Positions 12,214 through 58,131 of a DNA stretch of 64,000 nt are shown one piece after another (the stretch's first letter is position 1; each line of letters begins with the position of its first letter). A program made the position numbers and the translations under genes. The notes beneath the pieces are model-generated. The model had not been told where the DNA came from. It saw only the letters and a program-made list of their open reading frames with translations, and did not search any database. Origin of the DNA: a virus; UHGV virus genome UHGV-0084588; one strand, 5' to 3'.

Positions 12214-12282
12214 TATCTACTCCTATAGTCCGTGGGCGTCGAAGTTCATACTATGACTTGAATCTATAGAGGAAAAAGAGCT

Positions 12283-13545
12283 GTGACTACTGCTTATCAA
12301 GTGCGGCCCGACAGCGCTTTTGGCTTCTCTCGAGAGTCCCGTACCTGGGGAGCCATCGATGTCACGCAACCCTTAACTACGTTGTGTTCAGACTACCACA
12401 CCTTTGAGATCGGTTTAAGTGCACTTGGTAAAGACTATACGTTAATCAGTCAATACCATCTTGCTGAACTACAAAACCGAACAGACACTTTACAAGATTG
12501 GTTAAATGAAAAGGCCGGAAACGTCATTCCCACTCTAAAAGCCGGATTGCCGAAACTGGAATTCAGTTGGGCACATTACCAATCAATTAATGCCGATGTA
12601 CCTGTCGAAACATATCTGTGTCCACCAGGGTACCACCACAGTCAAGATTTCAGCCTAGACGATGCTGATGACGTTGTCGTCGTTTGTGAGGACAAGTGGA
12701 AAGACAAATACCGTAATAGTGTGCTGTACAACATTAACGGTCAATGGGTACCGCACCAGACGGATACCGTAGGTGTGCGATTGCCTGGGGCCGGTAAAAT
12801 CGTACGGAGAGCATGTACGCCAGATATTGGCTGTATGGTTTTTGGTCAGCTAGGGAATGTTAAAACCTATCCAATCGCCAACCTTACGCTAAACAAGCTC
12901 GACACTACACGCGACTATTACTCCACGTTAATGATATCGCTGCCTGAGTCTATTACGGGGAAAACCGTGGGTTTCGTCATAGGCGGATTGTTACGTTGGT
13001 TGCCCCCGGACGGTTATTTCTCTGACCGTGCGATCATGATTTCTTTACCGAATTTTGATCTTGCACGGACCGTTCTGGAAACCCGCCGTTATTACGACTG
13101 GGATAGCATCGGTGTAGGGGATTTATCATCGCCTACCAACGTTCAACGTATTCGTAACCCTGAAACACTGAAGGCGCTTTTACTCCACGAATCCTCTTTT
13201 ATCTTTACGGTAGATAATCCGTATTTAGAAGAAGAAGTTGTGGGTGTTTCGCATAACGCCGTTTGGGGACGCTGTTACCTCAAGGACCCCAACGATCCTG
13301 ATTCTGAAAAACCATTAGGGTACTTAAATAATCGATTTGGTAAGACGGTAGGTTATTGGCCTACGTGGGAGGAAGGTGAGTGGGTATTTAACACTACCGA
13401 ATTCGACAGTCAAAACTACGTCTTTCGTGAAGCCCGGTGGTATAATCAGAAGAAGATTAACGATGCTCAAGCAATCGTTGGTCCATTCGGTCCCTGGGAA
13501 AAAGTGTATTTAGAAATGCATCGCTTTAAAGCACGAAAAAAATAA
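12283..13545 (+). CDS. Hypothetical protein (420 aa), divergent from the fiber genes
   Basis: Track ORF with GTG start, GAGGA about 10 nt upstream; ends at a bidirectional terminator; no motif recognised. Confidence 0.45.
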   Translation: MTTAYQVRPDSAFGFSRESRTWGAIDVTQPLTTLCSDYHTFEIGLSALGKDYTLISQYHLAELQNRTDTLQDWLNEKAGNVIPTLKAGLPKLEFSWAHYQSINADVPVETYLCPPGYHHSQDFSLDDADDVVVVCEDKWKDKYRNSVLYNINGQWVPHQTDTVGVRLPGAGKIVRRACTPDIGCMVFGQLGNVKTYPIANLTLNKLDTTRDYYSTLMISLPESITGKTVGFVIGGLLRWLPPDGYFSDRAIMISLPNFDLARTVLETRRYYDWDSIGVGDLSSPTNVQRIRNPETLKALLLHESSFIFTVDNPYLEEEVVGVSHNAVWGRCYLKDPNDPDSEKPLGYLNNRFGKTVGYWPTWEEGEWVFNTTEFDSQNYVFREARWYNQKKINDAQAIVGPFGPWEKVYLEMHRFKARKK

Positions 13546-13551
13546 AGTAAC

Positions 13552-13594
13552 CTCCTACCCTCTAAGAGGGTAGGAGTAGCACGTTTTTTTTTTT
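13552..13594. terminator. Bidirectional intrinsic terminator between convergent genes
   Basis: CTCCTACCCTC-TAAG-AGGGTAGGAG stem-loop with A-run upstream and T11 downstream. Confidence 0.7.
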
Positions 13595-13597
13595 CGC

Positions 13598-13825
13598 TTA
13601 GTCTTTTTTGTAGACAATCGCGTTACCGTGCAGTTTGTTGTTGCCGGAAATACCGATAACTTTGAATGCGTCGCCGCCAATTTTTTCGGCTTCAGCAGCC
13701 AGTTTACCAGTTACATGATCAACGGTATCGCCGAAAGCGCTGACGTTACCGATTTTCTTAAACTCTTCTGGAATATGCTCAGCAGAAGAGAACTCTTTAA
13801 TAGACATAACAGCTCTCCATTTCAA
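13598..13825 (-). CDS. DUF1471 (YdgH/BhsA/McbA family) domain protein, no signal peptide
   Basis: 75 aa; KKIGNVSAFGDTVDHVTGKLAAEAEKIGGDAFKVIGISGNNKLHGNAIVYK matches the BhsA-type domain (recalled E. coli BhsA: ...GTISANAG...LAQKADEMGAKSFRITSVTGPNTLHGTAVIYK). GGAG RBS before the ATG; no N-terminal hydrophobic leader. Confidence 0.6.
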   Translation of the reverse strand: MKWRAVMSIKEFSSAEHIPEEFKKIGNVSAFGDTVDHVTGKLAAEAEKIGGDAFKVIGISGNNKLHGNAIVYKKD

Positions 13826-13875
13826 AAGGTTAGTGGTCTAAGACCGACGTGTGTTACAACCGAAGCATAAGATAG

Positions 13876-13895
13876 CTCCTCCCCGTAGGGAGGAG
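13876..13895. other. GC-rich stem-loop without T-tract
   Basis: CTCCTCCC-CGTA-GGGAGGAG in the intergenic region between two minus-strand genes. Confidence 0.35.
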
Positions 13896-14013
13896 TAGAG
13901 TGCGCGAAAAAAGTGGCCTGCTTAACTAAACGATGGGTTTAAGAAAAGTGTTGATAAAAAGTTTTACCAACGTCAGGTCACAATATATAAAAACAACGTA
14001 AGAAAAAGGGGAA

Positions 14014-14979
14014 TTATTGCGGAGGTGATGTCGGGCCATGTTTACCTTGGTGAATGTGAACGCTAAAGGTAATACCAGAAATAACGGCATCTTTAACCGT
14101 AAAGACACCGACGCCTTTGCCAGTACCGCCGTATTTGAAGTTCTTAGCGATTTCCAGATTACCGGTGAACATCGCTTCATTCCCTTCTTGTTTAAAGTTC
14201 GGCGTTTTAAATGTTGTCGAACTCCCTGCTTCCGTTAACCAGGTTTGTGTTTTAAACGTAACGGATTTCGCTGCTTCCGTATTGCGAACTTCGCATTTTT
14301 CATTAATTGTTTTCGTTTCCAGGTTAATAGAACGCTTTGAATAAATGAACGCATCTTCTTTGTTGATGTTCACTTTTGAAAGCATCGCATTCTCAAAACC
14401 TAAATCGTCTTCCACCGAGTTAATGTAATACTTATTCCCTTTGTGGTCAACACACTGCCACGTGCCATTTGCATTATCAAACTGAAATAACCACGCCGCT
14501 TTCTCGCCGTTCACCATACTTGTTCTTAGCGTGATATGTTTGTCAATCGTCGAGATATTCAACACATACGCATTGGACAGGTCATCCGCCATCTGGTTTT
14601 CAGGGTCAGCAGACCACGCGTAAACCGCATCCTCTAATCGCTTAACGTTAGCGAAGTTCAGATCAATCCAAAAATAAATATCGGTTTTCCCCAAACGTAA
14701 CAAGATAACGTAATCTTCTCGTTTAACGTCAGGGGAATTAATTCGGTTGGAGTTAAACTTCCACCACTTTGCTGTTATCGTGTTACCCGTCTTAATGGTT
14801 AGGTTATCTGTTGCACCAGACGTTTCATGCGTCTTTTCAGTTGCTGAAGAAACAGATTGCACCACGGTAGGGTTAGCAAAGTTGGTTTCAATTGGTATCA
14901 CTTTTACCCGATCTGTACCACGGGGTTTGTCTTCCGCGACGATACCAATTGAGAAAAAATCAACACTGGATTTCTCCAT
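14014..14979 (-). CDS. Hypothetical protein (321 aa), possibly virion-associated
   Basis: Track ORF; Thr/Asn/Lys-rich, beta-rich-looking composition; Gly-rich C-terminus (GGTGKGVGVF); no enzymatic motif. Confidence 0.5.
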   Translation of the reverse strand: MEKSSVDFFSIGIVAEDKPRGTDRVKVIPIETNFANPTVVQSVSSATEKTHETSGATDNLTIKTGNTITAKWWKFNSNRINSPDVKREDYVILLRLGKTDIYFWIDLNFANVKRLEDAVYAWSADPENQMADDLSNAYVLNISTIDKHITLRTSMVNGEKAAWLFQFDNANGTWQCVDHKGNKYYINSVEDDLGFENAMLSKVNINKEDAFIYSKRSINLETKTINEKCEVRNTEAAKSVTFKTQTWLTEAGSSTTFKTPNFKQEGNEAMFTGNLEIAKNFKYGGTGKGVGVFTVKDAVISGITFSVHIHQGKHGPTSPPQ

Positions 14980-15008
14980 CGGGACGTTCCTTAGATCGGA
15001 ATTGAATT

Positions 15009-15030
15009 CAGATATATATTACTTAAGTGA
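15009..15030 (+). promoter_or_regulatory. Promoter-like motif CAGATATATATTACTTAAGTGA
   Basis: 21 of 22 positions identical to the motif at 19359..19380 (24-nt TTCAGATATATATTACTTA(A/G)GTGA block shared); heads a 420-bp region without ORFs. Confidence 0.4.
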
Positions 15031-15286
15031 ATAGGGACTGAAGTACCAGTTCAGTCCCTACGGACACGTTTCATTCGAAACGGATTGATTAAACCATTTG
15101 GGGAGACAGATCATGTCTACTAAAAAAAGAAAGTCTCAATGAGCTGCTCAAACGTCTTAAAGACTACACTCCATTTAGTACCTTCCGATAACAGGTACTA
15201 AAATTTTACAGTCTGCCCCTTTATTCTGCTACTCGGGATACCGGTAGGGGGTAGGGGGCATTATGTATACGGATATAAATAGCGGA

Positions 15287-15303
15287 GGTATACGTAGTAT
15301 ACC
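15287..15303. promoter_or_regulatory. Perfect 17-bp palindrome GGTATAC-GTA-GTATACC (candidate operator)
   Basis: 7-3-7 inverted repeat about 100 nt upstream of the first paralog gene; an extra GTATAC copy at 15265..15270. Confidence 0.35.
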
Positions 15304-15398
15304 GACATACTCTTCCCAGAGGAACGTAGTGACTTCCTTATTCCTCTTCTGCAATCCATAATAATAGACTCCCCTTTATTGAGATTAGCGAGTAAATC

Positions 15399-16136
15399 AT
15401 GAGAGAATTATTAGACGATATCTTTACTAACACCAGTTTAGAACTTTCTTCTACCGTTGTTAACGAACTATTAAAACAATCGCAACCTGCTAAGTTAATC
15501 GATGCTGGAACAATTAAACCTGAAGATTATCCAGACAGTGACGTTATCGACTGTATGATTGACGAATACGTGATAGGCAGTTACGCCAACCGCGTCTTCT
15601 TCGTTATTAATACCGAAACCAGTGTCATGTTAATCTATAAGTTGATCAGTGATGCCGAACTTGAAGTTGTGGCTGACCACATTCGTCTTCTTGCGAACAC
15701 GCCTACTAGTATCGATGATGTGCTTATTGGGAACGGTTGGGCTTTACCACCACTATTCTCTTACTTCCCTCTGTTTAGAAATGGGATAGGGTTACTCCGA
15801 AATGCAGAAAAGCTTCCCGATAACGTCGAGTTATCACTGCTTGGACCCGGCATCGATCTTTGTCCATTAGAAGACGAGGGCACGCTATATGGTTTGCGCA
15901 TCTATGTTTCTGTGTTAAAGGGTTACCGCGTTATTGAACTGATTGCATCCGACTTAGCAAAACAGATCCCAGATGTGGAAACGATTTCTAAAGCCACCCA
16001 CCTGGTTGAGATTAACTCAGACGATCCCTTATTGAAATATCACGAGAAAATTGATCTTCGTAAAATCGCCACGATGAGAGGGTGGAGTTGTGCTGAGATT
16101 ACGAAGGACTATCTGCTGTTAATTAAAACCGCGTAA
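15399..16136 (+). CDS. Hypothetical protein, member of tandem paralog family (C-terminal GW motif)
   Basis: 245 aa; C-terminus ...RGWSCAEITKDYLLLIKTA resembles the C-termini of the next three genes. Confidence 0.5.
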   Translation: MRELLDDIFTNTSLELSSTVVNELLKQSQPAKLIDAGTIKPEDYPDSDVIDCMIDEYVIGSYANRVFFVINTETSVMLIYKLISDAELEVVADHIRLLANTPTSIDDVLIGNGWALPPLFSYFPLFRNGIGLLRNAEKLPDNVELSLLGPGIDLCPLEDEGTLYGLRIYVSVLKGYRVIELIASDLAKQIPDVETISKATHLVEINSDDPLLKYHEKIDLRKIATMRGWSCAEITKDYLLLIKTA

Positions 16137-16166
16137 TTAAGAAAACCGAAAAAAGGAGAATATACC

Positions 16167-16721
16167 ATGTTTCAAACTGAACTGAAAAATGAAATTATCC
16201 AAACCCTTGAAAAAGGCGTAGGCGAACATTTCTTTGTCCGTCCTTATACCGTACTGACCAATACCATTATCCAGCCAGGTGCGATGATAGTAGGGGTAAG
16301 TGTACAAGCTGTAGAGGAAGCCCCGCTGCGTCGTAACATCACACGTAAAAACCATATTCCATTTAGAACGGGTTTTACAAATTACTTTCAGAGCTTACTG
16401 AAAGATAGCGTTTGGAAAACAGGCAGCTTCTTCCACGAAGGGAAGACTTCCACGCTGGTTTATAAAGAGAACACCAAGTATCTGGTTGATTTTCTCTTAG
16501 CGCGTCAATACGATTTCTTTCCTTCACCCACCGGTCTCACCCCAGACAATCCGAGTAAGCTGTTAAACCAAGACGAAGCTGAAGCACTGCGTGCACAACT
16601 GAGAAAAGAAGGTTGTGATGTCGATGACCATGAAACCTTAATCGGGGTTGCTAAAGCACACGGTTGGTATACCGTGCGTGTATTTGGGCGTCAGATGTTG
16701 TTCTTAGCTTATAACGTTTAA
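16167..16721 (+). CDS. Hypothetical protein, tandem paralog family member
   Basis: 184 aa; AAAGGAG RBS; C-terminus ...AHGWYTVRVFGRQMLFLAYNV. Confidence 0.55.
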   Translation: MFQTELKNEIIQTLEKGVGEHFFVRPYTVLTNTIIQPGAMIVGVSVQAVEEAPLRRNITRKNHIPFRTGFTNYFQSLLKDSVWKTGSFFHEGKTSTLVYKENTKYLVDFLLARQYDFFPSPTGLTPDNPSKLLNQDEAEALRAQLRKEGCDVDDHETLIGVAKAHGWYTVRVFGRQMLFLAYNV

Positions 16722-16732
16722 AGGATGGTATC

Positions 16733-17860
16733 ATGCATATCTGTCATAACGCACCGTCGCACAAACTTTATCTTGAATTGCTTTTCGAGGACTACAAGAA
16801 AGGGGTGCCGAAAATATTACTTAGCATCCCGCCTGATACGCAAACTGAATTGTTCGGTCGCGTTTTTGGTTGTACCGTTAACGCTTTGCCAGAACCAATC
16901 TGTGCGCCTGTGGATAATTGTGTTTTCGACGAACGAATTGAGGATTTTCAATTCACCTTTTACGTAAACGATTCTTTACTGTACGATAAACTCTATGTTC
17001 GTGAGTTGAAATCAAATCAGCGGTTAATGTACCGCGTCTATCCGCCCCACAGAGGGTCGATACTAGAGTATAAAATCAGACGGCTACCTTACGAGGGTGT
17101 GAATTTACTCGACCAGCAGGATATGGCTTTTCTGGAAGAACTCTGTGGATTTGAAATTGAGAAGATTCACGTAACCCAGGAAATATCCCGAAACGTACCT
17201 AGTCGTCATACCCCTTACGGTGGGTTTCCGTACGAGTTCACCGACACAGGACTAAGGCTCGTAACCGAATTTAACGACGTAATGTATTACGCAGTGTGTA
17301 TTGAACGTAAAGTAGTGGAGAAAGAAATGACAAGTACATTGAAAGAAGAATTAGCCCAATTCATTCGTGATGTTGAAGAGAAAAGCAAGAGCGATCACAT
17401 TTTCTCACAACGTTATCCTGAACTTATTGACGAAACCACCGATAGTGTCGTCGATGGTATACGCATTTTCCCAAGTGGTCTTGCAATTTACCGACTGCCT
17501 AGTGTTAATCAGCTTAAAGTCATGGAAATGCTAAAAGACGTTTTAGCAGAAGCAGGTTGGGAATATCGTTTCGATTGCAATTTCGAAGGGATGGCGTTAT
17601 TCGTTACAAAGAAAAATTATACGTTGTCAATCGATCTGCCCAAAAGTCAATATTACAGTTTCTTCCCGAAAGCGGATGACCGCACTGAAAAAGAACCTGC
17701 GATGTTACTTGATGCGGCAGAGTCCAATACGCTAATGATACATCTGCGGACGATTGATAAAGAGTTAACTACCAGTCATTTAACGACGATCGGTAAAGAT
17801 TACGGTTGGAAATCTGTCGAACCGTATGGCAGTCAGCTACTGTTTGTTGCTGACCTCTAA
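16733..17860 (+). CDS. Hypothetical protein, tandem paralog family member with internal duplication of the GW motif
   Basis: 375 aa; two copies of the motif: ...AGWEYRFDCNFEGMALFVTKK (internal) and ...YGWKSVEPYGSQLLFVADL (C-terminal). Confidence 0.55.
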   Translation: MHICHNAPSHKLYLELLFEDYKKGVPKILLSIPPDTQTELFGRVFGCTVNALPEPICAPVDNCVFDERIEDFQFTFYVNDSLLYDKLYVRELKSNQRLMYRVYPPHRGSILEYKIRRLPYEGVNLLDQQDMAFLEELCGFEIEKIHVTQEISRNVPSRHTPYGGFPYEFTDTGLRLVTEFNDVMYYAVCIERKVVEKEMTSTLKEELAQFIRDVEEKSKSDHIFSQRYPELIDETTDSVVDGIRIFPSGLAIYRLPSVNQLKVMEMLKDVLAEAGWEYRFDCNFEGMALFVTKKNYTLSIDLPKSQYYSFFPKADDRTEKEPAMLLDAAESNTLMIHLRTIDKELTTSHLTTIGKDYGWKSVEPYGSQLLFVADL

Positions 17861-17886
17861 TAAGTGAAACTACACTTTCTCTAACT

Positions 17887-17909
17887 GCCGCGCTTTAGTC
17901 GCGGCTTTT
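17887..17909 (+). terminator. Weak intrinsic terminator / attenuator
   Basis: GCCGCG-CTTTAGT-CGCGGC followed by TTTTG. Confidence 0.3.
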
Positions 17910-17928
17910 GTTAAGAAGGAAAAAAGAA

Positions 17929-18708
17929 ATGAAAATCCATTTAGACGACCTCTTTAAAACTGAACCGTACATGGTTAAAGGTTCGCTGGCTTCATTGTTG
18001 CTAGACGATAGATACCATCGAACGCTACAATTACAATCGGTAGAAACCGCGCCAACGGGAATTGAAGACGTGGGTCTTTACCAACGTATCACTCACACAC
18101 GTGGAGAATATCGTCGATATAAACCCGATACACTGACCGTTAAGCTTTGGCAAGTGGGCACAGGCAAGGTATTAAGTTATCGCGCCGTTGGTCTGTACCA
18201 CGTTGAACGTGCTTACACATGGTTAGAAGAAGTTAAAGAAATGGATTACGACCAGCTAAGCAAAAGACTTCGTGACCATAACGCCAGTTTACCGTTACGT
18301 AATTATTTCTCCACAGTTGAAAATAGTCGTTGTTTCGTTTCTCGCGAATCCATGATATTACCTGGAACTGACGTTCAGACGACGCTAAAAGACGTGGTTG
18401 TAAAGAAAGTCTTTCATGAGTCTGAACACGTTGGGTTTCGTATCTATTTAACCCACAAGAGACCATTTACCGTGATTCATGTTGTTACCGTACCCGAAGG
18501 ATCAGCAGTCTCTCGGGAACTTCCTGATGCTCGCGACCGTTGCCCTAATGAGCCGCTCTACTTAATGTCAGGAACAAAATCAACCGCGTTGATGTCTCGT
18601 TACAGCATGATAGATGTTGTTGACGCTGCTATGAAGCTAGGTTGGAAAGAAGTGCAGCAACACGGTAAACAGTTGCTGTTTATTGCCGATGTAAAACTTA
18701 ATTATTAG
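17929..18708 (+). CDS. Hypothetical protein, tandem paralog family member
   Basis: Track ORF 17908 starts at TTG; ATG at 17929 follows AAGGA; C-terminus ...LGWKEVQQHGKQLLFIADVKLNY. Confidence 0.55.
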   Translation: MKIHLDDLFKTEPYMVKGSLASLLLDDRYHRTLQLQSVETAPTGIEDVGLYQRITHTRGEYRRYKPDTLTVKLWQVGTGKVLSYRAVGLYHVERAYTWLEEVKEMDYDQLSKRLRDHNASLPLRNYFSTVENSRCFVSRESMILPGTDVQTTLKDVVVKKVFHESEHVGFRIYLTHKRPFTVIHVVTVPEGSAVSRELPDARDRCPNEPLYLMSGTKSTALMSRYSMIDVVDAAMKLGWKEVQQHGKQLLFIADVKLNY

Positions 18709-18720
18709 TGAGGTGGAACC

Positions 18721-19299
18721 GTGTACCGATTAATAGAAATGCGAAAAGACGTTTGGTTGGAAAATCTCGTCGATGGGGAGCTTGAGGGAGTTGGGCTTTC
18801 CTTACCAGAAAGGGCGGACACGGTATTAGCCTTTCTGATAAAGCGGGCAGCGAATGAACCTGTGGGGATTTTCGACGTGGATTACAAAGAACCGCGCGGA
18901 ATTCGTTTACGTAACATCTGTTGTGGTTTAGAGAACTTGACGGCAAGTCCTTTCGTAAACTACGCAAAACGTAAACTCCAGCCAGGGCAACATCTCTGGG
19001 TAGTTCTAGCGCCAGATATTCGCATTATGCGAGACGACCTGACTGCGTTTGTGCAAGCAACGAAAGTCAGTTTGTACAATCCTAATGCGGAACGTACCGA
19101 TATGCCGTTTACAATCACCTTAGAAGACGATGGAACGCAAGAGGGCATTGAGGCGATTACGGAATTAGTAAACTCTTATCCGGTTGCATCTATCGAGTTA
19201 GAAAACCCAAACCGATTACCGTTGGGGGATTTACTCGAATGGATTGAGCTGAATACTGAGTTCCTCATTAACTCCCGACAATATCGGTTCGATGTATAA
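18721..19299 (+). CDS. Hypothetical protein (192 aa)
   Basis: GTG start after GAGGTGG; followed by an intrinsic terminator; lacks the GW motif. Confidence 0.45.
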   Translation: MYRLIEMRKDVWLENLVDGELEGVGLSLPERADTVLAFLIKRAANEPVGIFDVDYKEPRGIRLRNICCGLENLTASPFVNYAKRKLQPGQHLWVVLAPDIRIMRDDLTAFVQATKVSLYNPNAERTDMPFTITLEDDGTQEGIEAITELVNSYPVASIELENPNRLPLGDLLEWIELNTEFLINSRQYRFDV

Positions 19300-19303
19300 C
19301 GTC

Positions 19304-19336
19304 GGTGGGGGTAAACCCCCACCTTTTATTTTTTGT
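19304..19336 (+). terminator. Intrinsic terminator
   Basis: GGTGGGGG-TAAA-CCCCCACC followed by TTTTATTTTTTG. Confidence 0.7.
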
Positions 19337-19358
19337 TCGTCAACATTAAAAATAATTT

Positions 19359-19380
19359 CAGATATATATTACTTAGGTGA
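19359..19380 (+). promoter_or_regulatory. Promoter-like motif CAGATATATATTACTTAGGTGA
   Basis: Directly after terminator 19304..19336 and about 50 nt upstream of the first secreted-protein gene. Confidence 0.45.
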
Positions 19381-19429
19381 GAGTTATGATTAACTCATTT
19401 ATACATTAACGCCTTAAAGGAGCAAAACA

Positions 19430-19891
19430 ATGAAATTTTTTACTTCCTTTTTAACCATCCTCTTAACGCTGGGTCTCAATACTGCACACGCAGCAATCAA
19501 TAGCTGGGAACAAATCCAGTCTCCAGACCAAGCCATCTACGAAATCGAAGACACTGAAGGCAACAGCCTCTCTATCAATTGCAGTACAGAAACCGCCAAT
19601 CGTAAATTTTACGGGCACAATGTTTGGTATTACGGAGAACCTGCAGGGGCAACAAACGCTGAGGATAACGCGCTCGATATTGTCGTAAATGGTAAAAAAT
19701 ACCGTATCCCTACCATCGACGGTAGCGACCGTTCAGAACAAGCCTGGGCGGATTTCATTAAAGCGGTCGGTGGGGCAAACCATTTTAGCTTGCTTATTAA
19801 CGATAACGTGGCAGCAGGGTTTACCGTAGAAGGCGAACGCCTTAACGAAACGTTTTTCCAGAACTGTGGACACAGCCGTCCTAACAAATAA
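19430..19891 (+). CDS. Secreted/periplasmic small protein (signal peptide)
   Basis: 153 aa; N-terminus MKFFTSFLTILLTLGLNTAHA is a classic Sec signal ending AHA; Cys present; AAAGGAG RBS; preceded by terminator plus promoter-like motif. Confidence 0.55.
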   Translation: MKFFTSFLTILLTLGLNTAHAAINSWEQIQSPDQAIYEIEDTEGNSLSINCSTETANRKFYGHNVWYYGEPAGATNAEDNALDIVVNGKKYRIPTIDGSDRSEQAWADFIKAVGGANHFSLLINDNVAAGFTVEGERLNETFFQNCGHSRPNK

Positions 19892-19913
19892 ATATTAATC
19901 TTTTTTAGAGTGC

Positions 19914-20306
19914 GTGAAAATGAATATCAGAACTATACTTTATACTATCATTATTTTCTGTGCGGTCGGAATTACTGGCACTTATGCTTTCGGTGATTCG
20001 GATGTCCGCTATTACGAACCGGCTCCTGACTCACCCATTATCAACCCGGATGAGTCCCCTACGTTAATGCGCAGTTTCGGTAAACTGCAAGTTTATCGTT
20101 TAGTGCGTGGTGAAACGTGTACGGGATTACTCATTGCTGACACCCGTGCACAAGTCTACCAACGTCTAACCGATATTGCTTGCGAACAACCGAAAGTAAT
20201 GTCAGTTAGTATCCATCCGCTATCAGTTGGTAACTATACCGCTGTGGACTTCTTTCATAACGCCGAATTAATTGGCCGTGTTACTTTAAATCGTCCTGCT
20301 GAATAA
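19914..20306 (+). CDS. Secreted or membrane-anchored small protein
   Basis: 130 aa; hydrophobic N-terminus ILYTIIIFCAVGITGTYA; GTG at 19914 or ATG at 19920. Confidence 0.5.
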   Translation: MKMNIRTILYTIIIFCAVGITGTYAFGDSDVRYYEPAPDSPIINPDESPTLMRSFGKLQVYRLVRGETCTGLLIADTRAQVYQRLTDIACEQPKVMSVSIHPLSVGNYTAVDFFHNAELIGRVTLNRPAE

Positions 20307-20324
20307 TCTAAAGGAGTAGTTGCA

Positions 20325-20810
20325 ATGAAACGTTTACATACGCTGATGTTCTTTCTGGTTTTCTTGTTTATCGGTGCCACACCAACTGTAGATGCGGCCT
20401 CCGTAGACGAATTACTTACCTGTGATGGAAACGCTTGGGAAGGTCAGCCAAATGCGTGCCCGAACATCAACGACTTGTACGATACCGATAAGTCATTTAA
20501 AGCTGTTGTTGATAAAACACTAGACCCGGTGGGACTGGATGGTATGTTCGGCTCTAAAGGTTACATGGATGGTCCTGGCGGTAACATGTATCCGGTAAAC
20601 ATCAACAACAAAATCTGGATTGAAAGTGGTGGTTGTAAAGCTAATGCTTGTGGCTGGGAATACATCGTAACGCTATACAACCCACACACCAAGAAACTCG
20701 TCGGTTATTACTACAACATCGACCCCGGTTATCTGATTTGGTTCGGTGATATCGGTGTTGCTGAATTCGCTTACCTGGTTAAGAAATACGCGGAACAATC
20801 TAAATACTAA
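20325..20810 (+). CDS. Secreted protein with Ivy-like CKxxxCG motif (possible periplasmic lysozyme-inhibitor fold)
   Basis: 161 aa; signal peptide MKRLHTLMFFLVFLFIGATPTVDA; ESGGCKANACGWEYIVT resembles the Ivy loop region (recalled E. coli Ivy: SACKPHDCGSQRIAV), but the loop His is not conserved. Confidence 0.5.
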   Translation: MKRLHTLMFFLVFLFIGATPTVDAASVDELLTCDGNAWEGQPNACPNINDLYDTDKSFKAVVDKTLDPVGLDGMFGSKGYMDGPGGNMYPVNINNKIWIESGGCKANACGWEYIVTLYNPHTKKLVGYYYNIDPGYLIWFGDIGVAEFAYLVKKYAEQSKY

Positions 20811-20821
20811 GGACTTTTATC

Positions 20822-21232
20822 ATGAAAACTATCATCAACACTCTTCTCATTGCAATTGCTATTCTGTTCTCTGTTAACGTATCAGCAAAAACAATACAGT
20901 TGCCAGACGGTATTAAGTACGTCAATAGCACCGACGATTTCTACTGTACGGAAATTGACGGTCTGTACTGCCAGGCGAAGAACCTGTTTAAATACAAAGG
21001 TAGCAGATACGTGTTCATCGTTGAGCAAGGTGGTGCCTGGTGCTACGACAGCCCAATGTCTGTACTCAACCTCGAAACGTGGAAGGCACAACGTCTTGAA
21101 TACAACGACAAACATTTGTGCTCAGGCAACAACAAACCATTCTTCAAAGTCGTAGATGGTGTACCGATGGTAGGGATATTAGACACTTCGGAAAAACCTA
21201 TCGTTGTAGCTATGGATAAACTTAAAATTTAA
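20822..21232 (+). CDS. Secreted small protein (signal peptide, 6 Cys)
   Basis: 136 aa; MKTIINTLLIAIAILFSVNVSA signal peptide. Confidence 0.5.
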   Translation: MKTIINTLLIAIAILFSVNVSAKTIQLPDGIKYVNSTDDFYCTEIDGLYCQAKNLFKYKGSRYVFIVEQGGAWCYDSPMSVLNLETWKAQRLEYNDKHLCSGNNKPFFKVVDGVPMVGILDTSEKPIVVAMDKLKI

Positions 21233-36412: not shown

Positions 36413-37074
36413 TCGTTTATAGTGAGGTCTTGTCAAAAGCCCCTCGGTTTTTACAAACTCACTTTATGTATAACGCACGGCAGTATTGGGGCTTTAAAGC
36501 CCCTTACTCCGAAGATTGGGAAGTTGTGGAAAAGTTAGCATTTGTGTTTTCTCTTTCGTTGTTGTGGGAGATCATTGCACTATACAACGCGGGTTGTGAT
36601 ATCCCTGAGAACGGCTTTTTCCAACAACACCTATTCCAAAAATTCACAGCATCGATAGAAAATCATGAAGTACGCAAGGAGTGTATCGGCTACGCAGAGC
36701 ATTCTGAAGAATTGAGAAAGATTTCCAAATTAGTTATCACGCGGGCATGGGCTGAATTCGAAACTTACCCCGAAAAAATAATTTGGTTTAATCGTGAACA
36801 GTTTATTAAAGAGGCAGTCAGTCAACATCCCGTTCGATTAATCGTGTTAAAGCCGTCCGATCTTGCCTTACGCCGTGTCTATTCGTTTCCAGAGGAAATC
36901 ATTTTTTCCGCAGGAACAGCAGATTATGGTATTTTTAAGCAAGGTGATTCTTGGATTCTTCCGCACGACTTAGACCAGTATTTGCTCAATAGCGATCAAA
37001 TACATTCGGGTTATGACTCACAGGTGAAGGAGTTTACAGTCGATCCTTTTTTCGCTAAAAATATTCTTAGATAG
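36406..37074 (+). CDS. Hypothetical protein (222 aa)
   Basis: Track ORF; start overlaps the RNase H stop (ATGCTGA). Confidence 0.4.
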   Translation: MLIVYSEVLSKAPRFLQTHFMYNARQYWGFKAPYSEDWEVVEKLAFVFSLSLLWEIIALYNAGCDIPENGFFQQHLFQKFTASIENHEVRKECIGYAEHSEELRKISKLVITRAWAEFETYPEKIIWFNREQFIKEAVSQHPVRLIVLKPSDLALRRVYSFPEEIIFSAGTADYGIFKQGDSWILPHDLDQYLLNSDQIHSGYDSQVKEFTVDPFFAKNILR

Positions 37075-55911: not shown

Positions 55912-58083
55912 TTAACGTGCTTGCGGCAAGAAGATGTTCGCGATCTGGCGTGCTGGAAGCACATCAAACGCAGAGTTGATAAAGCTGCCTTGTGACCATG
56001 CAGATGCCCAGTTCTGTGCCCAAATGCTTCCTTGGATCTTAGCACGCTCTATACCGTTCGTACGCTCGTACAACGTCGCTGCACCCAAACACGCCATAAA
56101 CTCACTGAATTTATTATCGTCGTCCCAAACACCGGTGTCTGTAACGATGGGCATATACATCACACGGGACAAATCGCGGATGGTAACATTGATATCACAA
56201 GACAGTGGAACAGAATCGCCTGGCCGCCAACCTAAACCACCAACACCGAATTGTAAAGACAAAGACGTTACGATAGCATTACGGAACGAGAATCGGCCTT
56301 GTGAGTAACATTCCAAATAAAACGGATGAGTGAATGATTGTTTACCCGTCGCAATTGGACATACCGCGGCGATCCAAAAGGACAGCGGCACTAGAATTTC
56401 CTGGAAGATATCCAGGTCACTTCCCGACCACGCACGTAAAGGTATTGTCAAGTTAATATCGTCACCCGAGGCATCCGAACTGTCCCACACCTCTGGGAAG
56501 TCGATGACGGATGAGTTATATAACGACATAATCCCCGTTAAATGAAGCGTATCTGCTAACCCACGCATTACGGACTTAAAGCCTGTAATTAATGAATCGA
56601 CCGCGTTGAAGCCGGTTTGCCCGCCAGACAAGTTTACTTCAAGTTGACGAGCTTTTGCCGTCATTGAGTTAACTGTACTAGAAATCTCCGGCTCTTTTGT
56701 GGAGTTAGAGAACGAACGAGAGACGGTGTCCTTCCCATCGATTCTCCAGGTCACCCACTGAGAACCGTTGTAGATTTCGGACAGCGCCTGTGCTTTAATC
56801 CCTTCAATCTGTTCGCCAACCACTTTAACAAAGTCGCCGAAGAACGTCTCCATGGTCGATTCTTTGCCTTTATCCGCCCAGGACTGTATCGTATTCTGTT
56901 GTCCCTCGGTGAGGTTACTCGCATCGGCATTTTCCAAATCCTCATTCATTTTGTTTTGGATTTCTGCCGCCTGCGCCTCTAGGTCGCTTGCCGTTCCCCC
57001 AGTTTGTAACCCTGAACTAAACGCATCGAGAACCCCTTTCTCCAGTTCATCAACGCTGTTAATATCTTTACCCGACGCGTCTTTCGCCGCATAACCACCG
57101 CGTTCGGATGCGGCTAACCGTTCCATGTCTTGCAAAGAAACTTCGTAATTTCTCACATCGTCAGAATACGAAGCTGCGCCATATGTGCTATCCAAATAGA
57201 AATTTCGTATCCGCTCGGCGAGATCATCGTCACTTGAGGACTGCTTACGAAGCTCTTTTAAACGTTGATTCTGATAGTTCGCCAAAGTTTGATAACGGTT
57301 GATCATCTTAAAGACATCGAATTCACCGTCTTTTTTCCAAACCTCCGGCAACGCTTCAAACGCATCGTCGCGCGCTTTTTTGTTTCCTTTTCCATCGCCG
57401 TCTTGACTAACCTGGAAGGTACCTAAGATACCCGTAGGAACCAAACGACGATAAACAAGTTGCGTATTCAAGATGTTCTGTACAGCACGCAAATACAGAT
57501 GCATCGTCGGTTTAACGTAATAATAACGCGACGTTTGTTTATTCAACGCTGCCGCGAGAATGCGTGGAGTAATTAAAATTACCGCAAAAGCGACAGTACC
57601 CACCGTTGCCCATATCGCTGCCGCGCCGATATAACTTGCTATCGTACGGATCATTCCCGGATAGTCACCCGTACGCGCTAAATATGCTAAGTTGGAATCG
57701 TACATATTCGCAAAGAACGCGGCCATGCCCAGATATTTCGGCTTTCCGAAACGGCAATGTACGTAAAACGAATTTTGGTTAATACTTTCGTAATAATACG
57801 TCCCTAAGCGATAAGAAGCGGTTGGCATACCGTTAGCCAACGCCTTTTTCTCCGCCTCACGATTACCGGGTCGTGCAAATGCCCCAGTTGATGGGGGGTC
57901 TGCAAACCACGTAAACTGCGGAGGGCTATTAATCGCTTTACTACCGCCCATGGTCGTATCTTCAAAAGACATCATACCGTTAGAGTAGCGTCGCAAGGCC
58001 AGAAAACGTTCATCTCGGCCTTCCAACTCTCCCTTAAATAGATTTCTGACCCAGCTTGAGTCGTTAGCTGATCTAGCGTCCAC
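55912..58083 (-). CDS. Hypothetical protein (723 aa) with internal hydrophobic segments
   Basis: Track ORF; TM-like stretch IASYIGAAAIWATVGTVAFAVILITPRILAAAL; downstream of the giant SLT protein gene. Confidence 0.5.
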   Translation of the reverse strand: MDARSANDSSWVRNLFKGELEGRDERFLALRRYSNGMMSFEDTTMGGSKAINSPPQFTWFADPPSTGAFARPGNREAEKKALANGMPTASYRLGTYYYESINQNSFYVHCRFGKPKYLGMAAFFANMYDSNLAYLARTGDYPGMIRTIASYIGAAAIWATVGTVAFAVILITPRILAAALNKQTSRYYYVKPTMHLYLRAVQNILNTQLVYRRLVPTGILGTFQVSQDGDGKGNKKARDDAFEALPEVWKKDGEFDVFKMINRYQTLANYQNQRLKELRKQSSSDDDLAERIRNFYLDSTYGAASYSDDVRNYEVSLQDMERLAASERGGYAAKDASGKDINSVDELEKGVLDAFSSGLQTGGTASDLEAQAAEIQNKMNEDLENADASNLTEGQQNTIQSWADKGKESTMETFFGDFVKVVGEQIEGIKAQALSEIYNGSQWVTWRIDGKDTVSRSFSNSTKEPEISSTVNSMTAKARQLEVNLSGGQTGFNAVDSLITGFKSVMRGLADTLHLTGIMSLYNSSVIDFPEVWDSSDASGDDINLTIPLRAWSGSDLDIFQEILVPLSFWIAAVCPIATGKQSFTHPFYLECYSQGRFSFRNAIVTSLSLQFGVGGLGWRPGDSVPLSCDINVTIRDLSRVMYMPIVTDTGVWDDDNKFSEFMACLGAATLYERTNGIERAKIQGSIWAQNWASAWSQGSFINSAFDVLPARQIANIFLPQAR

Positions 58084-58090
58084 GTTTTAC

Positions 58091-58124
58091 CTCTAAAAAA
58101 AACGGGGGTAGTTTCCTACCCCCT
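58091..58124 (-). terminator. Intrinsic terminator downstream of the giant SLT protein gene
   Basis: GGGGGTAG-TTTC-CTACCCCC with U8 on the minus strand. Confidence 0.65.
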
Positions 58125-58131
58125 GTTGTTA

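Follow-up and report, generated by a model that had tools for sequence, protein, structure and literature searches.

Giant phages are known to produce small RNAs (sRNAs) that derive from 5′ untranslated regions (5′-UTRs). The one conserved example in the literature, sRNA005 of phage 201phi2-1 together with the phiKZ sRNA located upstream of gp182, is attributed to premature termination (PMC11512511). We analyzed a 64,000-nucleotide stretch of the virus genome UHGV-0084588 (the window), and in particular the gap that extends from the start of a minus-strand gene at 14979 to the next plus-strand ATG at 15399, bounds that coincide with those given in an earlier sequence-only reading of this DNA. 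The gap includes a 129-nt conserved non-coding block, element E. We propose, at a rough probability of 0.55, that E is a structured plus-strand regulatory RNA, a leader or an sRNA, that would work through an RNA mechanism.

Like sRNA005, E would be a short structured non-coding RNA ahead of a gene, positionally conserved across giant-phage genera and possibly generated by premature termination. Unlike sRNA005, it occupies another locus, since the place of the published sRNA is the interval between a gp181-like and a gp182-like tail gene. The 201phi2-1 genes gp276 and gp277 were located to compare the sRNA locus. In the window, the gp182-type gene (55912-58083, 723 amino acids, aa) is adjacent to a tail gene of more than 1955 aa. 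Based on location, and with no sequence resemblance detected by eye, the possibility that E is the published conserved jumbo-phage sRNA was rejected. The minus strand at 58084-58131, between these tail genes, has a terminator-like arrangement composed of a strong hairpin and eight U residues (GGGGGTAG-GAAA-CTACCCCC-TTTTTTTT). This is the position occupied by the conserved 5′-UTR sRNA in 201phi2-1 and phiKZ.

E also resembles the bacterial leader RNAs that act as attenuators or as platforms sequestering the Shine-Dalgarno sequence. A pyrimidine tract similar to an anti-Shine-Dalgarno sequence can form mutually exclusive pairings with purine tracts or with the ribosome-binding site, and a hairpin followed by U-rich sequence is found just before the start codon. 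In contrast to those leaders, E has no identifiable ligand or sensor domain and no Rfam match, in several phages no gene follows it, and the polymerase would be the phage multisubunit enzyme. With the palindromic operators of phage repressors, E shares a short inverted repeat in a divergent intergenic region, but its arms are not conserved (six versions exist) and the spacer measures 3-6 nt. Therefore, we consider E a candidate for a new RNA family within the phage leader and small RNAs, with a regulatory function that we infer from these features.

Gene regulation in jumbo phages of the SPN3US/phiEaH2 type is essentially unmapped. These phages encode two RNA polymerases, and some of them are candidates for therapy or biocontrol. 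The analysis of this locus provides a promoter consensus, a 25-aa small gene that is being lost, and a non-coding element of 60-130 nt that is kept more strictly than protein-coding sequence across genera and is missed or mis-annotated as "hypothetical protein" in GenBank. If E does act as an RNA switch or an sRNA, it would join a very small group of conserved riboregulators known from giant phages.

Conservation and structure of element E

The proposal is built on the conservation of E, its copy number, the compensatory changes in its hairpin, its strand asymmetry and its genomic contexts. A near-identity search of the gap region against GenBank phages produced no match, and relatives were reached via the baseplate gene, which lies to the left of the gap, and short motifs. 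Among 13 clade members, 124 of the 129 columns of E are invariant (96%). In the same genomes, the invariance is 82% for the baseplate gene, 58% for the third codon positions of this gene, 18% for the third codon positions of the downstream gene, and 0-13% for the flanking non-coding DNA. The spacer between E and the downstream gene also differs in length, 55 nt in the window and 24 nt in the relative L144. The conservation of E is far beyond chance.

The motifs of E are arranged in the order CCCTTTATTCTGCTACTCGGG, G tracts, a GTATAC-containing segment, a hairpin between CGGAGG and CGACAT, and GGAACGTAGTGACTTCC-TTATTC (Table 1); the loop sequence CGUAGUGAC is also part of the element. The pyrimidine arm of the core resembles an anti-Shine-Dalgarno sequence. 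The two G-rich tracts reported in the sequence-only reading are present (GGTAGGGGGTAGGGGG). That reading had also considered a leader or a small RNA, and the very strong constraint on the block that includes the G tracts and the palindrome fits either of these putative functions.

Pattern searches and a covariance model detected a single copy of E in the window. By BLAST, E was found in 72 GenBank phage records, nearly always at one place per record and mostly in unannotated DNA. The covariance model scored 45-51 bits on its members and 12-22 bits at the E position of variants that were left out of the model. Some GenBank "hypothetical proteins" have their starts placed inside E (L010 3814, which is the start of Caitlin gp184, and several SPFM records). 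These calls are probably over-extended or spurious.

The self-complementary hexamer GTATAC is found three times in a 38-nt part of E (15265, 15288 and 15297), out of 13 copies in the 64-kb window, an arrangement that allows alternative pairings. In addition, ACGTAGT is directly repeated at a 32-nt spacing. The triple GTATAC and this direct repeat suggest that E grew by tandem duplication of a unit of ~32 nt.

The site described before as a perfect 17-bp palindrome (GGTATACGTAGTATACC, 15287-15303) is real, although it consists of a 7-bp inverted repeat, GGTATAC/GTATACC, around the 3-nt spacer GTA. The stem located between the invariant CGGAGG and CGACAT exists in six forms, GGTATAC/GTATACC, GGTATCC/GGATACC, GGTACCC/GGGTACC, GGTACTC/GAGTACC, GGTGAC/GTCACC and GGTAGC/GCTACC, all of them perfectly complementary, with loops of 3, 4 or 6 nt. 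Every one of the 26 pairs at variable positions is complementary. The covariance comparison with related phages suggested in the sequence-only reading was carried out, and it revealed compensatory changes in this hairpin as well as in H1, a hairpin near the 5′ end of the gap. Thus, the palindrome is conserved in relatives, as a structure with six different complementary stems. The operator function that had been considered for it did not hold, as the arms differ at three of seven positions among genera and the spacer is 3, 4 or 6 nt long. Since arms and spacer vary freely while the pairing is kept, the pattern is that of an RNA stem and not that of a dyad recognized by a protein.

Strand asymmetry was observed in the elements of the Seoulvirus and Machinavirus type. 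In seven of seven lineages the plus strand folds better than the minus strand, by 4-13 kcal/mol, and the structures have 1-8 G·U pairs on the plus strand versus 0-2 on the minus strand. Therefore, a plus-strand RNA is indicated.

These properties can be combined in a proposed mechanism in which the gap would serve the operon 15399-19299 as a 5′ leader, which at ~370 nt is unusually long. Rightward transcription would initiate at the early-type jumbo-phage promoter at 15007-15030, and the transcript would begin with a stabilizing stem-loop (15032-15060), followed by the decayed 25-codon gene and by E (15215-15343). E would be an ancient, single-copy and self-contained module that acts as plus-strand RNA and includes a purine tract (G5-N-G5), one or two hairpins in which the sequence is not important, and a final hairpin. 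In the final hairpin, a GGAGG/AGGAA arm pairs with a CCUCC/UUCCU arm, which continues as UUAUUC and U-rich sequence, and this 3′ arm would serve as an anti-Shine-Dalgarno-like tract. Besides the GGAGG/AGGAA arm, the upstream G tract and the ribosome-binding region downstream are possible partners of the pyrimidine tract. The most likely action of E would be that of an attenuator or expression platform, where the tract would pair with one of these three partners, and the choice would set the extent of transcription or translation into the next gene. A short stable RNA could be released, similar to the 5′-UTR-derived sRNA reported in 201phi2-1. In the window clade E is located downstream of a promoter-type motif and, therefore, it should be transcribed. 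Transcription of the Aeromonas copy is suggested by the plus-strand terminator located downstream of it.

A broader proposal, which we put forward as tentative, is that E represents a previously unrecognized family of phage regulatory RNAs, found in at least five enterobacterial genera and in reduced form in Aeromonas jumbo phages. Such RNAs might act in trans, as mimics of the anti-Shine-Dalgarno sequence at the 3′-end of 16S rRNA, or via the G tract, and reprogram translation or the fate of transcripts. Phobos carries ACCUCCUUA, which is identical to the 16S rRNA tail.

A number of results weigh against an RNA role. In Erskinevirus both strands fold about equally well. The core hairpin, GGAACGTAGTGAC, shows almost no covariation, with one compensated pair, and its conservation as sequence fits a protein site on DNA too. 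A simple terminator scan did not call the last hairpin of E in the window, Caitlin, SPFM4 or Machina, and E failed as an intrinsic terminator because its stems are not continuous and the U-rich tail does not follow at once. A recognizable plus-strand promoter was not found upstream of E in Derbicusvirus, CR5 or L152. An AT-rich box upstream of the Aeromonas copy was not supported as an early promoter; it is present in a single copy and is not a multi-copy motif. Furthermore, the activity of the early promoter, the starts, ends and timing of the transcripts, and the attenuator or sRNA action were all deduced from the DNA sequence.

Other possible identities of E were considered. A search of Rfam 15 gave no relevant match at E<=1 in positions 13000-21000 of the window or at the loci of seven relatives. 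A G-quadruplex was rejected, as only two runs of four or five G residues are conserved across genera and a third, GGG, is present in some clades only. The hairpin promoters of phage N4 (5-7-bp stem, 3-nt loop) are alike in form alone; the polymerases here are multisubunit enzymes and the loop has 3-6 nt. In several clades the hairpin is followed by CUCUUUUUAAC, an arrangement like boxB-boxA of lambda nut or rrn sites. The window clade lacks this arrangement and host Nus factors are unlikely partners.

Genomic contexts and alternative explanations

Homologs of E are located 73-97 nt from the baseplate start codon in Erskinevirus, Seoulvirus, Machinavirus, Wellingtonvirus and Derbicusvirus, as well as in uncultured contigs, and the baseplate gene is the constant left neighbor in all enterobacterial relatives. 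In the window clade, a promoter, hairpins and a small gene are inserted between the baseplate gene and E, which are 170-270 nt apart. What lies on the other side of E varies: Erskinevirus and Seoulvirus have a 105-aa gene (phrog_18565) there, Derbicusvirus, CR5 and L152 the early-type promoter that precedes the next operon, and the window clade an unrelated gene. E is independent of any one gene. The sequence-only reading had considered that the region might control the paralog array that follows it in the window; a role dedicated to this array was not supported, since in relatives E precedes the 105-aa gene, an early-type promoter, or, in Aeromonas phages, no gene.

The core of E is conserved in Erskinevirus, in Derbicusvirus (CGGAGCGTAGCGACCTCCTTATTC) and in the Aeromonas Ferozepurvirus. 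In the Ferozepurvirus phages, whose identity around the core is only 75%, the core GGAACGTAGTGAC(T/A)TCCTTT, preceded by a small GCCC...GGGC hairpin, hardly varies. This core is far from the baseplate gene, in an ORF-free stretch of ~230 nt that closes with a strong 17-bp plus-strand terminator. In pAEv1810 and ACP1 the next gene is convergent and there is no gene downstream of the core on either strand. Therefore, E cannot be a promoter or a leader for a protein gene in those phages. Aeromonas phages PS1 and AVP1 (L160 733- and L162 720-), unlike pAEv1810 and ACP1, have an HNH endonuclease gene inserted directly behind the terminator at the end of the E-like stretch.

Searches with short patterns were also carried out. 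The pattern CGGAGGT-N8-20-ACCGACAT was too loose for IMG/VR, where it returned 120 mostly chance loci that were filtered by the presence of the G tract. The 19-mer GGAGCGTAGCGAC(T/C)TCCTT, the Derbicusvirus form of the core, was found in intergenic repeat-like elements of bacterial contigs (L180-L196), including four contigs of one Victivallales metagenome-assembled genome, three Legionella contigs, where it is at the tip of long inverted repeats, and Tannerella/Prevotellaceae. Some of the Legionella and Victivallales sites are at the tips of repeat hairpins. These bacterial sites had no Rfam or literature match and were rejected as homologs because their count is near the chance expectation.

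A serious rival, which we nonetheless judge unlikely, is that E works as double-stranded DNA, as the regulatory region of divergent promoters between the baseplate gene and its rightward neighbor. Repeated motifs (G5-N-G5, ACGTAGT at 32-bp spacing, GACATCCTTATTC, found twice in phiEaH2, and TTATTC boxes) would be bound by a phage transcription factor or would facilitate DNA opening by the non-virion RNA polymerase. The fixed distance upstream of the baseplate start in five genera and the direct repeats at 32-nt spacing agree with such a role; the longer distance found in the window clade does not, and the Aeromonas core is remote from the baseplate gene, with no gene to serve in pAEv1810 and ACP1. 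In most genera E adjoins a conserved minus-strand block, CGTAAAAAAG-N-GTAGTATG, that matches the TATG of phiKZ-type late promoters (PMC7598289, PMC12809450). However, E is 96% invariant in the window clade although the window, L163 and L143 have lost this adjoining TATG. Another TATG, which would fit the DNA role, is found just after the G tract in several clades (15262-15265 in the window, and also in Seoulvirus and Wellingtonvirus), although a 4-mer alone has no discriminating power; Machinavirus, Erskinevirus and Derbicusvirus have TCTG or no such motif, and its absence from the last two counts against the DNA role. A DNA role would also agree with the core motif, in which the sequence itself is conserved and covariation is low, and no other place for a promoter of the 105-aa gene exists in Erskinevirus and Seoulvirus. 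On the other hand, stem sequences and loop lengths that vary freely while pairing is kept, and G·U pairs on one strand only, favor RNA.

We consider it very improbable that E marks a replication origin or another site of DNA transactions, in which the G5-N-G5 transcript would form a stable R-loop with the C-rich template and prime synthesis, as in ColE1 or the mitochondrial conserved sequence block II (CSBII). The single copy of E, its strong conservation as non-coding DNA and its invariant G-rich tract on the non-template strand, downstream of a promoter, would suit this purpose, but most genera have no evident promoter upstream of the G tract, and neither an AT-rich unwinding element nor an iteron array is present. 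E does coincide with a switch in gene orientation and with the minimum of the cumulative GC skew of the window, a minimum that gene orientation fully explains. There is even less reason to believe that the region is mainly decaying coding DNA and that its conservation reflects a small protein. A 32-codon ORF (15263-15361) spans E and a 25-codon gene located upstream is real in sister phages. However, in SPN3US and Wellingtonvirus, which have a conserved E, a stop interrupts the former after 1-6 codons, and E is invariant at all codon positions, without any third-position change. The 25-codon gene is outside E, and its frameshift or deletion in six of the 13 clade members left E unaffected. Considering all these points, a plus-strand regulatory RNA is still the explanation that we prefer.

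The source phage and other features of the gap

The window belongs to an uncultured jumbo phage of ~225 kb, related to Erwinia phiEaH2 and Salmonella SPN3US, that has its own multisubunit RNA polymerases. This assignment was based on the identities of the baseplate protein and on contigs of 222-229 kb from IMG/VR and metagenomes that carry the same baseplate gene (93-100% identity). A tblastn search with the baseplate protein covered 290 jumbo-phage records, and the identity was 72% with Erwinia Stratton and phiEaH2, 62-67% with SPN3US-type Salmonella phages and ~27% with the phiKZ type. The gap is a composite of an early-type promoter, a broken 25-codon mini-gene and the 129-nt conserved non-coding element. 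The operon served by the leader is followed by a terminator at 19304-19323. The genes starting at 16167, 16733 and 17908 are true paralogs of each other that share a C-terminal domain (BLASTP). The gene at 15399, taken before as the first paralog, has no BLASTP similarity to them. A scan for tRNA and tmRNA genes found none.

Table 1. Features of the gap and of the adjacent DNA (window coordinates)
Feature	Position	Strand	Evidence or remarks
Baseplate assembly protein gene (homolog of phiKZ gp164 / 201phi2-1 gp249)	14014-14979	-	phrog_3216, E=9e-114; tblastn; 201phi2-1 annotation
AT-rich promoter-type motif TTCAGATATATATTACTTAAGTGA	15007-15030	+	Recurs in window and relatives; predicted early (virion RNA polymerase) promoter
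Hairpin H1, 11-bp arms, 7-nt loop	15032-15060	+	Directly after promoter motif; covariation in relatives
Small hairpin CGTTTC-ATTC-GAAACG	15067-15082	+	Conserved in clade members that keep the small gene
Remnant of 25-codon small gene	15113-15191	+	ATG at 15113, GGGGAG upstream; intact in sister phages
Hairpin, 10-bp arms TTTAGTACCT/AGGTACTAAA	15174-15202	+	Overlaps end of small-gene remnant; only in the subclade of the window
Element E, 129-nt conserved non-coding block	15215-15343	+	Conservation in 13 genomes; single copy in window
G tracts GGTAGGGGGTAGGGGG (GG-TA-GGGGG-TA-GGGGG)	15243-15258	+	G4-5 N2-4 G5 kept in every enterobacterial relative
CGGAGG, hairpin GGTATAC-GTA-GTATACC (15287-15303), CGACAT	15282-15309	+	Flanks invariant across genera; stem varies
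Core motif GGAACGTAGTGACTTCC-TTATTC (15321-15343) in alternative stems AGAGGAA/TTCCTCT or GAGGAA/TTCCTT	15318-15347	+	Sequence conservation
Variable spacer with ribosome-binding site of downstream gene	15344-15398	+	9% invariant; indels
First operon gene, 245 aa	15399-16136	+	No family match; operon reaches terminator 19304-19323
Second copy of promoter motif	19357-19380	+	Directly after terminator; then short hairpin and normal ~50-nt leader

AT-rich motifs centered near -10 were described as early promoters, read by the virion RNA polymerase, wherever they were tested (reviewed in PMC7598289). Based on this description, the motif at 15007 was assigned to the early-promoter class as a predicted promoter, with a putative transcription start at ~15028-15032. 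The promoter-like block with a second copy noted in the sequence-only reading was confirmed, and the two copies are identical at 23 of 24 positions. They share an exact 18-nt core (which in the second copy starts at 19358), with 0.05 occurrences expected by chance. Weaker copies are found at 37068 and 46181. Plus-strand genes are located downstream of all four sites, which define the consensus AGAYAKATATTAY-N3-4-GTG. Genomes of SPN3US-like, CR5 and PCH45 phages have two to seven copies each of the same motif, most of them outside annotated features. The copy in SPN3US is located directly after a terminator and ~50 nt ahead of a gene. A scan for sigma-70 promoters showed no enrichment, as expected for a phage that has its own polymerases.

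The motif shares with the phiKZ-like early promoters a strongly conserved AT-rich block of ~10 nt ahead of co-directional operons, often directly after a terminator, and its occurrence in related phages. It differs in the consensus, which is that of the SPN3US-like group, and in the leader, which is ~370 nt long at the 15007 copy and ~30-60 nt at the other three sites of the window. To our knowledge, the consensus of the SPN3US-like group was never mapped experimentally.

H1 follows the promoter motif directly. The sequence-only reading was correct about the existence of this hairpin, but not about its position: it was placed at 15039-15063 and its true place is ~5 nt to the left, with arms at 15034-15042/15050-15058 (9 bp) or 15032-15042/15050-15060 (11 bp). 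In nine distinct relatives 98% of the cells of the stem are paired, and three pairs changed on both sides in a compensatory way. The loop (15043-15049) is seen as its exact reverse complement in close relatives (L164, L145, L146 and L166), with the orientations GTACCAG versus CTGGTAC and GTGCGAG versus CTCGCAC. Therefore, the whole palindrome must have flipped at least twice. This freedom of the loop suggests that the stem alone is important. At 19357 and in SPN3US, too, the promoter motif is followed by a hairpin. The simplest reading is that H1 is probably a protective stem-loop at the 5′-terminus of the transcript. The hairpin at 15067-15082 offered no covariation.

The claim that the gap holds no plausible ORF is valid for the sequence of the window as it stands, but a frameshifted 25-codon gene with its own Shine-Dalgarno sequence had been missed. 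The ORF that starts at the ATG at 15113 closes after nine codons (stop at 15140-15142), and the homologous 16 C-terminal codons (ELLKRLKDYTPFSTFR*) continue in the +1 frame up to 15191. The reading frame shifts at a run of seven A residues (15122-15128), which splits the ORF in the window, while the gene is intact and conserved at the protein level in sister phages. The intact 25-codon ORF encodes MSTEKKSGLDEVIELFKRYNPAIPR in L144, L146, L166, L167 and L169, and MFAEQKDGIEEVVRLFRHYSPYLPR in L145 and L171. In these phages it has a good Shine-Dalgarno sequence and is located between the hairpins and E. The two versions share 59% DNA identity and differ at 10, 7 and 15 first, second and third codon positions, respectively, mostly the third; 8 of the 21 changed codons are synonymous.

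The small gene is deleted in four close relatives (L143, L164, L165 and L168). In L163, with a 100% identical baseplate protein, the run has five instead of seven A residues, and the gene is also out of frame. The window and L163 differ by three substitutions in this stretch. Because all three are synonymous in the homologous frame, either the loss of the gene is recent, or the run lengths are the product of assembly errors or of a slippage-prone run. The possibility that the gap holds a degenerate copy of the 105-aa gene found after E in phiEaH2 and SPN3US was rejected, as a comparison by eye showed no similarity between that protein and the reading frames of the window; the window clade carries a different gene of 25 aa, not the 105-aa one.

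Outside the gap, the divergent region at 12214-12282, between a minus-strand virion gene of 1440 aa and a plus-strand virion gene of 420 aa, has two back-to-back TATG motifs (TTCATACTATGAC). Each of them is ~30 nt from the corresponding start codon and matches the core of the phiKZ-type late promoters.

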